Positions 41,481 to 53,526 of a DNA stretch of 64,000 nucleotides are shown piece by piece. A model generated the notes under the pieces. The model was not told the DNA's origin and ran no database searches. It was given only the letters and a program-made list of their open reading frames with translations. Made by a program: the position numbers and the translations under genes. Source of the stretch: Escherichia phage Paul; sequence record NC_070992.1; one strand, 5' to 3'. How positions within the stretch are numbered: position 1 is the stretch's first letter; each line of letters opens with the position of its first letter.

Positions 41481-43511
41481 TTAACCTCTATTCAATGAAC
41501 ATTTAGGAGAATTACAATAAACTTGATTCATAGAACCAAGCGTACAACTTTCAGCATCGCGCCACGGAATCTGCTTAAAACACTCTGAGCAGTATCCGAG
41601 GGTTGACCACATGGCTTTGGTGAAGTCAGTGCTTCGGTTTCCGTCAAAGCTGACAACAGTTTTGCGGAGAGCTGTTCGTGATTCAGGAAACACACCTGCT
41701 TTCTCAGCAGGTTCCTCCTTTTTTGGCTTAGTTGAGATTGCAAAAATACTGTTGCTACGTTTCTCAACATAAGCATCAACAACATCCTCCAGAGTGATGC
41801 CTGTCTGTTTCGCTGAGGAAGGTAATACAGTCATACGACCGATCATATCTTCAGTTACACGTAAAGCAAATTCAGGACGACGGGCGTTTGTTGTATCTGT
41901 TGCTTTAATCCAGATATAACCATCTTTGATCGTAGCATTAGATACTTTCTTCTTTACTTCTACAGCGCAGACTTTACAGATATCTTCACCACGAAGACGA
42001 CTGAGTTCTTCATCAAACTCATTCTCTGTTTTAACTTCACCACAGATTTCACAAACACCAATAGGAGTCTCCTCCTCTTCTTCCTCTTTAGGTTTAGTCA
42101 AACCTTCCAGACATTCAGGATGCCAGTAGCACTGATATGCGAAGACTGCTTTAGGTGCATCCTTCCAATCAATGTGTTTGTCACAACCGCCACAATCACC
42201 ATGAGAATGTGCTTCCCAGAATTTACGAGTGATAGTAACGCCATTCTTGTTAACGAAACTATCATTCATATCAAAAGGGATATCATCATCGAAGTCAGCA
42301 GTAGTTGACTCAGGCTCCTTTTTCTCCAGAGATGGGTCAACAAAACGACCTGCTGTGATCACTAAACGAACCATAGCATTAACTTCGGAGATGCAGGATA
42401 CTGTTCCACGGTAAACAATTTTAGGGTCTTTCAGTGCATCCTGATAAGCCTTAATGTCTACGTTATGAACATCACCTTCGATATACTCTTGAGACTTCTC
42501 ATCGTAGATATAACCAATCATCTTACCACGAGAAGGAACAGCACCAGCAGTTGCATAAGGAACAAACTCATGTGGTGTGATTTCCACAGTCATGTCGCGG
42601 CGAATGTCAATGTTTCGATCGCTTGCGATTTTGTTTTGACTTACTACTGCGTTTCTTCGACGAACGTCTGCCGCTGTCACTCCCGGCTTCGTGTCGTAAG
42701 GATTGCTTGTACTGCTTTTTGAGGAACTTTGATAATTGCTTTGGCTGTAGTTGTTCGAGTAGTAACTGCCCCAACGATTGACTACCGTAAAAACCGGAAG
42801 CTCGTGGGCGACCTCTTCAACCAGTGTCATGCTATTGTTTGACATGTCAAAGATATACTCTGTACCAACTTTACATTCAAAATGCTCATCAATACGGTTC
42901 TTGTGAGACTTAGAACGCTTCAGAATCCACATCAACATATCTTCTTCAGAAGCACCAAACCAATCTCTGTTACAACGTGCGAGATGGAAAGGACGCTCTT
43001 CATTACGGATGATATGAAGGCGGTTATCAGAAGCGTCATGCCAGATTAAGGTGAAGGCACCATCCAGCTTTTGAATGGTCTCTGCTGCACCAATAGTGTT
43101 AATAGAATGGCAGATGTTCTCACTGTCTACCTCGAAGTTTTTACTGTCAGGTAACAGATCTTGGTCCATCAAGGTTCCGTTATGAACCAGAGTGATGTTA
43201 CCATGTTGGAAAGGATGGGCGTTCTTGGCGTTAACTGCACCTTTCGTTGCATGACGGCTGTGACCAACAATCCATGAAGGTGCTACAGTGTAAGCTGTTT
43301 CACCAGTGGTGTGTTTCTTGTACTCATCTTGAAGGATGAATGCGAAAGAAGGAAGTGCTTCTTTATAAGTGAAGACCTCTTTAGTGCTCTTACGCTGACC
43401 AAAGATACCAGAGGAATGCTGTCCTCGGAATACTCCAGCATAAAAGAGTTGGTTAAATACGTCTAAATCAGTGCTTGACAGATTACCGCCAGCTAATACG
43501 ATGCCACAAAT
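41481..43511 (-). CDS. class II (Ntn) glutamine amidotransferase with Cys-rich zinc-ribbon C-terminal region; apparent AUU start
   Basis: Track ORF 41481..43172 extends in frame upstream to stop-AAA-ATT-TGT; encoded N-terminus CGIVLAGG...RGQHSSGI...GHSRHATKG...HPF...HNG is a canonical Ntn amidotransferase; C-terminus has several CxxC pairs. Confidence 0.7.
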   Translation of the reverse strand: MCGIVLAGGNLSSTDLDVFNQLFYAGVFRGQHSSGIFGQRKSTKEVFTYKEALPSFAFILQDEYKKHTTGETAYTVAPSWIVGHSRHATKGAVNAKNAHPFQHGNITLVHNGTLMDQDLLPDSKNFEVDSENICHSINTIGAAETIQKLDGAFTLIWHDASDNRLHIIRNEERPFHLARCNRDWFGASEEDMLMWILKRSKSHKNRIDEHFECKVGTEYIFDMSNNSMTLVEEVAHELPVFTVVNRWGSYYSNNYSQSNYQSSSKSSTSNPYDTKPGVTAADVRRRNAVVSQNKIASDRNIDIRRDMTVEITPHEFVPYATAGAVPSRGKMIGYIYDEKSQEYIEGDVHNVDIKAYQDALKDPKIVYRGTVSCISEVNAMVRLVITAGRFVDPSLEKKEPESTTADFDDDIPFDMNDSFVNKNGVTITRKFWEAHSHGDCGGCDKHIDWKDAPKAVFAYQCYWHPECLEGLTKPKEEEEEETPIGVCEICGEVKTENEFDEELSRLRGEDICKVCAVEVKKKVSNATIKDGYIWIKATDTTNARRPEFALRVTEDMIGRMTVLPSSAKQTGITLEDVVDAYVEKRSNSIFAISTKPKKEEPAEKAGVFPESRTALRKTVVSFDGNRSTDFTKAMWSTLGYCSECFKQIPWRDAESCTLGSMNQVYCNSPKCSLNRG

Positions 43512-43590
43512 TTTCTAATCCACCTGAAGGGTAAACCCTTTCATCTAATTAACCTTTAAATTGTGCCCCTTTGCCAGAGGCACCCATTGA

Positions 43591-44694
43591 TTACAGCGCT
43601 TGCTCTAACTGATGTTCCAGATGATCTGGAATGTACCCTGTGATGTTATTATCACTGTGACCTGACTCACGAAGCAAGTCAAAAATAGCACGGATACGTT
43701 GTTCTGGTGCAGATCGTACTTGAGACAAGTCAGTTGTACGAAGCATAACCAGAATCTCTTGATATAAGTTGTTAGCGTTCCCTCGTACATATCCAAGGAA
43801 TCCATAGAAGTCTGAGATAAGACGTAAGTCAACAAGAACCTCTCCGTTGGAGTTGGTTCGACGTAAACGAATACGACCAGACTGTTCTACTTCATGAGAA
43901 CGACAATACAAAACATCACGGGCCATACAATACCCTGAATGCAAATCCGATTCGTCCAGATTGTAATCCAGAGGAAGGTAAGGAAGCATTGGGGCAAATC
44001 GTACAGTATTTAAATGCTCAATAAACTGATCATTGCTCATCTCTGCGTTATCTAAAGCCAGTTTCTTCAACATCAAGAAGCGGTTAACCAGATTGAGAAG
44101 TTGACCACGTTTCCACTTAGGCTCACTGATACGGAACTCAATTGAACCATATTGTGCAAGTGGCAGAAGGTTCAGGGATGTATACTTATCCCATGAACGA
44201 ACCAGACGATTGAAGAACTCTTCATCGTCGTAGTTAAATGCGTCAGAGGCATTCATTACCTGTGCTTGTACCACTGCAAAAGCAGGGCAGAAGTTGCTAC
44301 GGTAACGATGATAGCCTGAACACTTGAACAACATCTTTTCATAGAAGGTCCAAGCGAGAATGGTTTTCTTGAGGATATTACTATCAGCATCCCTCATATC
44401 CATATGAACGTGAGTAGAGCAACGCCAAGTCCCCTCGGCGTGCGATTCAGCTACTGCTTCACTCAGGTTGTTGATAGCGTCTAACAACTCCTGTCCGTTG
44501 TAAGGCCGTGAACATACCATTTCACAACCATTACGCAGGGAACCATCCTCTGTACAATCCCACATATCTGCTTCGATATGGTCGGAGCCTTCGAGTTCTA
44601 GTTCGATACCGACACCGCACTGAAGTGCAATTGAACTATGCGCCTCAGTTAAACGACCTTCTCGATATCCAAAAGTTTGCGCTACAGTTGTCAT
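43591..44694 (-). CDS. amidoligase (GCS2-like carboxylate-amine ligase, phage amidoligase family)
   Basis: GVGIELELEG...DGSLRNGCEMVS...STHVHMD matches the amidoligase signature. Confidence 0.65.
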   Translation of the reverse strand: MTTVAQTFGYREGRLTEAHSSIALQCGVGIELELEGSDHIEADMWDCTEDGSLRNGCEMVCSRPYNGQELLDAINNLSEAVAESHAEGTWRCSTHVHMDMRDADSNILKKTILAWTFYEKMLFKCSGYHRYRSNFCPAFAVVQAQVMNASDAFNYDDEEFFNRLVRSWDKYTSLNLLPLAQYGSIEFRISEPKWKRGQLLNLVNRFLMLKKLALDNAEMSNDQFIEHLNTVRFAPMLPYLPLDYNLDESDLHSGYCMARDVLYCRSHEVEQSGRIRLRRTNSNGEVLVDLRLISDFYGFLGYVRGNANNLYQEILVMLRTTDLSQVRSAPEQRIRAIFDLLRESGHSDNNITGYIPDHLEHQLEQAL

Positions 44695-53400: not shown

Positions 53401-53430
53401 TGAGTGATCTCCTTATTTGAGAGTACTTTA

Positions 53431-53506
53431 AGAGGACGGGGAGATTCGAACTCACCAACCTAGAATTTAGAAGATTCTTGCTCTCATCCAATTGAGCTAC
53501 GCCCTC
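53431..53506 (-). tRNA. tRNA-Arg (anticodon UCU), no encoded CCA
   Basis: Folded by hand: acceptor GAGGGCG/CGTCCTC (one G-U), D-stem GCTC/GAGC, anticodon stem AGAAT/ATTCT, loop CTTCTAA, T-loop TTCGAAT; one extra nucleotide in the variable region; 3' end followed by TTAAAG. Confidence 0.7.
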
Positions 53507-53526
53507 TTAAAGTACTCTCTGTTTAA

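Follow-up and report, generated by a model that had tools for sequence, protein, structure and literature searches.

To our knowledge, infC (IF3) and pcnB are the only two genes of E. coli confirmed to initiate at AUU. Here we describe a gene that would, if our reading is correct, be a third natural case. It lies in a stretch of 64,000 nucleotides from Escherichia phage Paul (NC_070992.1), referred to in its entirety as the window, and encodes a predicted class-II, N-terminal nucleophile (Ntn) glutamine amidotransferase with an ATT codon immediately before the codon of its predicted catalytic cysteine. In infC, the thrS stop codon is located 3 nt 5' of the AUU (UAA GGU AUU), and initiation is divided about evenly between reinitiation and the de novo route (PMC3592434). 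Output from AUU has been ~1-2% of that from AUG in one system and 6-8-fold below AUG in another. The amidotransferase gene resembles infC and pcnB in that its AUU is preceded by a Shine-Dalgarno (SD) sequence, and it shares with infC the spacing of stop codon, 3 nt and AUU (UAG AAA AUU in the window). It differs in that the upstream open reading frame (uORF) is a nine-codon relic and not a real gene, that no autoregulatory logic is known, that the product, an enzyme of a phage, has to expose residue 2 as its N-terminal nucleophile, and that the AUU appears to be linked to a mobile element. Being kept in ~100 coliphages, such a gene would offer a ready system for the study of near-cognate initiation and reinitiation.

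Free-standing homing endonucleases, such as the products of the seg and mob genes, carry out intronless homing in T4-like phages. In the closest parallel, mobE reportedly interrupts nrdA of Aeromonas phage Aeh1, leaving two pieces that are both translated. Amidotransferase loci related to that of the window appear similar in that an endonuclease lies beside or inside a conserved gene, flanks are co-converted, presence or absence of the endonuclease varies between alleles, and the interrupted gene stays functional through new translation signals. Unlike in the T4-like systems, the insertion occurs at the first codon boundary, the endonuclease takes the ribosome-binding site (RBS) and ATG, a carried SD with AUU or AUC would restart the gene with its exact N-terminus, and the window would retain only a scar. 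A third comparison is with B. subtilis PurF and glutamate synthase, Ntn amidotransferases that are made with a propeptide. These belong to the same superfamily and have the same need for a free Cys1. In the window, however, no uninterrupted reading frame leads from a canonical start to the Cys, and the in-frame TAG two codons before it rules out a normally translated propeptide of the PurF type.

The AUU codon and the catalytic cysteine

The window is derived from a Kuravirus (Gordonclarkvirinae; phiEco32-like coliphages), and identity of the region with Escherichia phages NJ01, SU10 and phiEco32 amounts to 94-97%. On the minus strand, the sequence over the start reads ...CCTTCAGGTGGATTAGAAAATTTGTGGCATCGTATTAGCTGGCGG, with CCTTCAGGTGGATTAGAAAATTTGTGGCATC at 43530-43500. 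As the initial annotation had described, TAG (43517-43515) and AAA (43514-43512) are followed by ATT and TGT (Table 1) and then by GGC ATC GTA TTA GCT GGC GGT, giving the peptide CGIVLAGG. Its statement that no in-frame ATG, GTG or TTG occurs from the TAG to the Cys codon holds on a frame scan. The frame is open from this TAG to the stop codon at 41483-41481, and initiation at the AUU followed by removal of Met would yield the N-terminal peptide CGIVLAGGNLSSTDLDVFNQLFYAGVFR.

For comparison with known structures, a profile was built from 18 diverse amidotransferase N-terminal domains. Profile position 1 (Cys) corresponds to chain residue 1 (Cys1) of the E. coli GlmS glutaminase domain 1xff (3.5e-13) and also of 1jxa, and the profile likewise aligns from residue 1 with the PurF structures 1ecb and 1ao0. 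Because the TGT aligns to residue 1 of both GlmS and PurF, it is the predicted codon of the catalytic Cys1. Residues R28, G29, H83, R85, H98-P99-F100, N110-G111 and D128-S129 are invariant in the family alignment (A1), and we take them to map onto the catalytic residues of GlmS. The class-II signature is present (RG...G, GH.R.AT, NAHP, HNG, DSE), homologs begin M-C-G-[ILM], and Pfam GATase_6 matches residues 75-175 (1.1e-14; 55 bits versus a cut-off of 27). By the position of the Cys and the domain signature, the protein is assigned to the class-II (Ntn) glutamine amidotransferases, its activity being predicted.

Distant homologs (~70) carry ATG-TGY-GG exactly at the position of ATT-TGT-GG in the window; these are from Grimontviridae phages of Proteus, Shigella, Vibrio, Salmonella and Aeromonas, and from IMG/VR and metagenome contigs. 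The initial annotation had proposed to check whether homologs in related phages lack a canonical start as well. The ATT was found in all Gordonclarkvirinae records inspected, namely in Kuravirus, in Suseptimavirus SU7 and ECBP2, and in Nieuwekanaalvirus KBNP1711 and EP335. The non-AUG codon is thus kept among orthologues of three genera and is also present in the Aeromonas phage BUCT695. It is unchanged in ~97 phage records of the three genera, and a 70-nt query over the start matched 66 phage records at 100% identity and another 29 at 95-99%. Between genera, codons 2-114 show proportions of synonymous (pS) and non-synonymous (pN) differences of 0.66-0.77 and 0.13-0.16, respectively (pN/pS ~0.2), and these upstream 113 codons contain no stop codon in ~97 genomes. 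Judged by this pattern, codons 2-114 are translated and under purifying selection. In SU10 proteomics, the amidotransferase was detected with 9 peptides against a database model that was the truncated 63.8 kDa version, the N-terminus not being covered. On the comparative evidence, we consider it very probable that the AUU at 43511-43509 is the initiation codon of the amidotransferase. The same proposal in the initial annotation is supported in this respect, with the caveat that it had overlooked the nine-codon uORF in the amidotransferase frame, so that reinitiation would be likely and readthrough of the UAG formally possible. The low expression that it had also suggested for an AUU start is an inference.

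The SD preceding the AUU had been called good. Its position is as described, and its strength is ordinary: the AGGTGG duplex with the anti-SD has -5.9 kcal/mol, compared with a median of -5.6 over 45 long open reading frames (ORFs) in the window; set against background positions, it falls within the top 9%. Its counterparts are AGGAGG at loci L037, L041 and L053 and AGGCGG in BUCT695. Two further start codons overlap the ATT/TGT out of frame, a TTG (43509-43507, 8-codon ORF) and a GTG (43507-43505, 4-codon ORF; region 43483-43509, minus strand). Located 10 and 12 nt from the SD, they could compete with the AUU for initiating ribosomes.

The window is not alone in lacking an AUG. An IMG/VR survey was seeded with a protein profile; among the 80 loci listed, the codon before Cys1 is ATG in 54, ATT in 11 (five from the Kuravirus group), ATC in 4 and TTG in 4, with an SD 6-8 nt upstream at each locus. 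At loci with no canonical in-frame start (L100, L101, L104, L125, L136 and those bearing the cassette described below), the codon at -1 is always ATT or ATC, which holds for eight lineages besides that of the window. Overall, AUU/AUC starts recur in ~12 lineages of the phage amidotransferase family. At four IMG/VR loci with ATT before the Cys (L115, L138, L141 and L144), a GTG, ATG or TTG in the same frame is also present 8-13 codons upstream, and three of them share ...GGA G(A/C)T TTT AT(T/C) ATT TG. From their sequences, these four could start there and make a PurF-like propeptide instead of using the ATT.

A start cassette shared with homing endonuclease junctions

The window junction CAGGTGGATTAGAAAATT|TGTGG agrees almost completely with the 3' junction of HNH homing endonuclease genes that are inserted at ATG|TGT of the same gene in unrelated phages. 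The pattern CAGG[T/A/C]GGATTAGAAAATTTGTGG is common to the window, BUCT695, L037/L041 and L053, with variants in L234 and L101. An exact-pattern scan of 596 Gb of bacterial genomes (17.5 specified bases; ~35 chance matches expected by a rough estimate) returned 15 matches, of which 14 are chance and one is a Kuravirus contig in a metagenome-assembled genome.

Loci L037 and L041 are soil-metagenome contigs whose amidotransferase is 35% identical to that of the window. They read CAGGAGGATTAGAAA ATT TGT GG where the sisters L036, L038 and L039 read GAAGGAGTTCACATA ATG TGT. The L041 endonuclease, of HNH_3+AP2 type (Pfam 6.7e-14; phrog_99 7e-40), starts on the RBS and ATG that belong to the amidotransferase (...GAATA ATG TGG ATG GAT...) and ends just 5' of the cassette (...TGAGCAGGAGGATTAGAAA ATT TGT GGA ATC), and the endonuclease-free sister L039 has ...GAATA ATG TGT GGA ATT. 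In L037, a different HNH endonuclease (phrog_374, 5.6e-64) ends with CAG GAG GAT TAG, its stop codon being the TAG of the cassette. Over the first 440 nt, the endonuclease alleles L037/L041 show only two shared differences from L039, ATG>ATT and GGA ATT>GGA ATC (position 12). The change from ATG to ATT is therefore tied to the endonuclease insertion by this near-isogenic pair with and without the endonuclease, which was seen for the L039 versus L037/L041 lineage. Loci L036-L041, all from JGI soil metagenomes (Ga0137xxx, Ga0105340), are near-identical alleles from related samples in which the endonuclease is either absent or one of two at a single site. The pattern has the look of a homing polymorphism that is still active and in which one endonuclease replaces another.

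An endonuclease ORF adjoins the amidotransferase start in L037, L041, L100, L101, L233 and L234, and a remnant of one is present in BUCT695. In L100, L101, L233 and L234, the endonuclease is of the HNH_3 type and immediately precedes an ATC or ATT allele. The L100 endonuclease takes the native start (GAGGAGCTAAT ATG TGT AAG...). L234 carries GGAGGATTATAAAATTTGTGGCATCGTA, which agrees with the window at 26/28 nt, in the arrangement hairpin-TTGGAGGATTATAAA ATT TGT GGC ATC GTA, and the left junctions of L233 and L234 keep xTG TGT GGx relics. In L053 (IMG/VR), GAAGGAGGATTAGAAA ATT TGT follows a Peptidase_C26 gene and no endonuclease is present. The BUCT695 remnant (locus L042, 2305-2510) is an unannotated, stop-interrupted HNH_3-type endonuclease with a C-terminal helix-turn-helix, situated between amidoligase and leader; its ATG overlaps the amidoligase stop (TAATG), and it belongs to the same endonuclease family as the L100 type. 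In the IMG/VR survey, an HNH_3/zf-His_Me endonuclease lies directly upstream in L100 (ATC) and L101 (ATT), and L115 (ATT) has a weak HNH match on the opposite strand. The four closest IMG/VR homologs of the L100 endonuclease are all located 5' of an ATT/ATC amidotransferase. In the unbiased surveys, an HNH-family neighbour occurs in 4/12 ATT/ATC lineages, compared with 0/50 distinct ATG loci taken as control (Fisher p ~9e-4 by our own calculation).

The cassette of the window is embedded in a 54-nt leader that does not vary among five representatives drawn from three genera. In 30-nt segments, 30/30 positions are invariant at -30..0 versus 13-23/30 in the flanks, and synonymous sites beside the leader are saturated (pS 0.66-0.77 in adjacent codons). 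In BUCT695 (Grimontviridae), 28/30 nt at -30..0 are identical, including uORF, TAG and ATT, although the amidotransferase N-domain is only 53% identical to that of the window. Relatives L018 and L019, at 66% identity, have an ATG start and are without the leader. The distribution of the cassette hence disagrees with the protein tree, with relatives at 66% identity lacking it and relatives at 53% and 35% carrying it.

The uORF within the leader (ATG AAA GGG TTT ACC CTT CAG GTG GAT TAG) precedes the amidotransferase in the same frame, the conceptual translation being N*MKGFTLQVD*KICGIVLAGG. Its end, CAG GTG GAT TAG, matches CAG GAG GAT TAG at the end of the L037 endonuclease ORF. The uORF ATG was considered as the original ATG of the amidotransferase and found unlikely, as ECO319P1 has the same TAGATGAAAGG leader 5' of its real ATG. 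A small hairpin is located 0-3 nt 5' of the SD in every cassette-bearing locus, with a stem that varies from locus to locus (AAGGG/CCCTT in the window, GTCGG/CCGAC in L234, ACGAC/GTCGT in L101 and GTAGCC/GGCTAC in L100); hairpins with other stems occupy the equivalent position in L234, L101, L100, L041 and L053. Folding of the whole leader revealed no unusual stability (z = -1.17). The minimum free energy alternative, a hairpin that would sequester the SD (GGUUUACC/GGUGGAUU), was dropped since it is broken in BUCT695. An Rfam scan of 43350-43700 at a permissive threshold gave only two sub-threshold chance matches.

Origin of the start region and rival explanations

We propose that initiator tRNA decodes the AUU to begin translation of the amidotransferase gene (43511 to 41481, minus strand) and that methionine aminopeptidase removes the Met, exposing Cys1 as the Ntn nucleophile in the manner of GlmS, PurF and AsnB. 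The AUU would be part of a portable module consisting of a hairpin, an SD, an 8-nt A-rich spacer and AU(U/C). In other phages, this module forms the 3' end of an HNH endonuclease gene inserted at ATG|TGT of the amidotransferase gene; the inserted endonuclease takes the native RBS and ATG, and the module would restart the amidotransferase. Kuraviruses would have kept the module and lost the endonuclease, making the ATT most likely a scar of the invasion. Present-day initiation is probably mixed, with SD-directed de novo initiation at a weak, IF3-sensitive codon and reinitiation by ribosomes that finish the nine-codon in-frame uORF 3 nt 5' of the AUU. The ATT may have been retained because an ATG would recreate the cleavage site, because low, IF3-sensitive expression was favoured, or both.

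Taken as a whole, that is as an AUU start within an endonuclease scar module with mixed initiation, we regard this explanation as probable. Its separate parts are held with differing confidence. The junctions lean moderately towards a homing endonuclease as the origin of the module, and a contribution of uORF coupling to initiation is suggested tentatively and with appreciable doubt. A wider hypothesis, in which we have somewhat less than even confidence, is that an HNH family homes into the first codon boundary of amidotransferase genes, hijacks the RBS and ATG and carries a restart module, that a non-AUG codon blocks recreation of the target, and that the Kuravirus leader is a domesticated, infC-like, uORF-coupled and IF3-sensitive throttle. 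Such a domesticated throttle would account for the freezing of 54 nt across three genera. If so, selfish endonucleases may rewrite the start codon of a host gene and leave a functional scar, which would be a concrete source of non-canonical starts.

Several observations weigh against this explanation. None of six endonuclease queries found a homolog in the window, and no Gordonclarkvirinae record has an endonuclease at the amidotransferase start. Eight ATT/ATC lineages, that of the window included, are without an adjacent endonuclease. The BUCT695 remnant is situated 5' of the leader and not between ATG and TGT, an arrangement that does not settle the exact history of the Kuravirus leader. Pseudomonas phage UFV-P2 (L295; JX863101, 10667-11084) has an HNH_3 endonuclease of the same family between amidoligase and amidotransferase, yet reads TAGAAGGATTTCAAT ATG TGT, and is a counter-example to a strict link between endonuclease and ATT. 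As for the mixed initiation, the SD of the uORF (AAAGG, 43557-43553) is weak (-3.4 kcal/mol) and that of the amidotransferase only average. Finally, the invariant 54-nt block needs more than an SD plus AUU. Its invariance is only partly explained and requires either a very tight constraint at the RNA or DNA level or a recent lateral spread by gene conversion.

A different explanation is that the leader is a purpose-built translational control element, infC-like and either uORF-coupled or containing a regulator site, with no endonuclease history, and that the cassette is shared through convergence or recombination. It would fit the 54 nt held invariant across three genera despite pS ~0.7, the recurrence of the hairpin-SD-AUU architecture with different stems, the infC-like order of stop, 3 nt and AUU, and the eight lineages without an endonuclease. 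We nevertheless consider it unlikely: the spacer ATTAGAAA is fixed in four lineages, which convergence would not bring about, the cassette physically ends endonuclease ORFs and cassettes in L037, L041, L101 and L234, and ATG>ATT is tied to insertion by the near-isogenic alleles L039 and L037/L041. A control element is compatible with the preferred endonuclease origin as a later step of domestication.

A further rival is readthrough of the UAG. Translation from the uORF ATG (43544) through the TAG would give MKGFTLQVD-X-KI-CGIV..., with a 12-residue propeptide removed autocatalytically. The uORF is indeed in the amidotransferase frame and inside the invariant island, Ntn amidotransferases with a propeptide exist (B. 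subtilis PurF, as a matter of general knowledge), and L115, L138, L141 and L144 have in-frame canonical starts 8-13 codons before the Cys. No suppressor tRNA is present in the window, however, which encodes only tRNA-Arg(TCT), with no Rfam match near threshold, and TAG serves as an ordinary stop in 3/33 long ORFs. Both substitutions in the BUCT695 uORF are non-synonymous, giving no sign of selection on the peptide, and AUU initiation (1-2% to ~15% of AUG) should far exceed any basal readthrough of UAG. L100, L125, L136, L101 and L104 have TAA or TGA 4-7 codons upstream or no in-frame start, and readthrough is therefore not the general solution. We regard it as highly improbable in the window.

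It is similarly improbable that the catalytic domain is not made at all, with an internal start such as TTG 43172 and with the 113 codons before it as a decaying remnant. The gene is annotated in this way in NJ01, SU7, KBNP1711 and EP335, and the 63.8 kDa model is the one in the SU10 proteomics database. A decaying remnant would hardly combine pN/pS ~0.2 with saturated synonymous sites and an absence of stops in ~97 genomes; moreover, GATase_6 spans the TTG, the annotated starts vary between records, and the SD of the TTG is weak (-3.5 kcal/mol). A sequencing or assembly error hiding a canonical ATG, which had been raised in the initial annotation and which only the rarity of ATT starts would favour, has a negligible probability and is excluded because the same ATT occurs in ~97 independently sequenced phage records as well as in IMG/VR and metagenome contigs.

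Annotation and setting of the gene

The features of the locus are compiled in Table 1.

Table 1. Positions of features at the amidotransferase locus of the window
Feature	Position	Strand	Remarks
Glutamine amidotransferase gene, phiEco32 gp83 orthologue	41481-43511	-	ATT-start reading: 676 codons + stop
Internal TTG, start in NJ01-type annotation	43170-43172	-	Drops first 113 residues of catalytic domain
Leader island, 54 nt, AAAGGTTAATTAGATGAAAGGGTTTACCCTTCAGGTGGATTAGAAAATTTGTGG	43504-43557	-	Identical in Kuravirus, Suseptimavirus and Nieuwekanaalvirus
TGT, predicted catalytic N-terminal nucleophile Cys1	43506-43508	-	Aligned to GlmS/PurF Cys1; Cys nearly invariant in alignment A1
ATT, proposed AUU initiation codon	43509-43511	-	Position of ATG in homologs; invariant in inspected Gordonclarkvirinae and BUCT695
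Cassette CAGGTGGATTAGAAAATT (SD, A-rich spacer, ATT)	43509-43526	-	17/18 nt match 3' junction of HNH endonuclease genes of unrelated phages
Mini-uORF MKGFTLQVD + TAG, in amidotransferase frame	43515-43544	-	9 codons; stop 3 nt 5' of ATT
Shine-Dalgarno AGGTGG	43520-43525	-	8 nt 5' of ATT
Small hairpin AAGGG-TTTA-CCCTT	43527-43540	-	Ends 1 nt 5' of SD; -6.1 kcal/mol with flanking pairs
Intercistronic 8-bp hairpin, amidoligase/amidotransferase gap	43563-43583	-	Terminator-like; U tract poor
Amidoligase gene upstream of amidotransferase	43591-44694	-	Other frame; stop TAA 43593-43591; annotated amidoligase in NJ01 and SU10

As an annotation, the ATT start is not new. The coding sequence is already given from the same ATT, by annotation only, in phiEco32 gp83 (ABY52884, EU330206 / NC_010324, 2008), SU10 RefSeq, LAMP, Bas87 and Bas92. 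Other records use internal starts, each different: a TTG in NJ01, an ATG in SU7, and other internal codons in KBNP1711 and EP335. These are not conserved between records, and the Met of SU7 is Leu in the window. The mechanical ORF likewise begins at TTG 43172, 113 codons into the gene, as the initial annotation had stated. The disagreement over the start concerns the gene of the window and loci L001-L006 and L149, and the shortened models are without the catalytic Cys. In Pseudomonas phage O4, the homolog starts at ATC and its annotation leaves out 36 codons. The amidotransferase gene is shortened, with loss of the catalytic domain, in at least half of the public records, an error that gene callers will repeat, as also with the ATC of O4.

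A literature search that did not extend to the primary phiEco32 papers found no paper discussing an AUU/ATT start in phiEco32-like phages, and a search for a link between endonuclease and amidotransferase found only a UFV-P2 gene table. The recurrent AUU/AUC starts of the phage amidotransferase family and the connection with homing endonucleases inserting at the start codon may be undescribed. The near-isogenic, endonuclease-free ATG allele, the invariant 54-nt leader and the infC-like uORF geometry also appear to be so.

The amidotransferase is part of a conserved gene order: COOH-NH2 ligase, hypothetical, amidoligase, amidotransferase, two small ORFs and ATP-grasp. Fusion with the upstream amidoligase was rejected, as that gene is in another frame (in keeping with the initial annotation) and is separated by an 80-nt gap with a hairpin between. 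The stem of this intercistronic hairpin shows compensatory changes in SU7 and ECBP2 (GCGCTCT/AGGGCGC versus GTGCCTCT/AGGGGCAC). A scan for sigma-70 promoters and terminators identified nothing relevant on the minus strand. In the relatives L018, L019, L007, L008 and BUCT695, AATGTAAA/AATGTAAT is found ~25 nt before the start (equivalent to 43547-43560 of the window, minus strand) and resembles the phi32_gp36 promoter consensus tAATGTAtA (PMC8948821). A phi32_gp36 promoter was rejected for the Kuravirus leader, where the corresponding AAGGTTAA has two core mismatches to the consensus; judging from its sequence, it looks like a decayed promoter.

Of the 676 aa of the protein, ~230 at the N-terminus form the class-II (Ntn) glutaminase domain, which is followed by a long part rich in Cys. 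Its C-terminal two thirds (41481-42800, minus strand) have no Pfam match and contain several CxxC pairs (CGGC...CYWHPEC; CEIC...CKVC; CSEC...CNSPKC), a pattern which suggests that zinc-ribbon modules are fused to the glutaminase domain of the protein. The tRNA-Arg(TCT) gene, the only tRNA gene of the window, is located at 53430-53507 on the minus strand.

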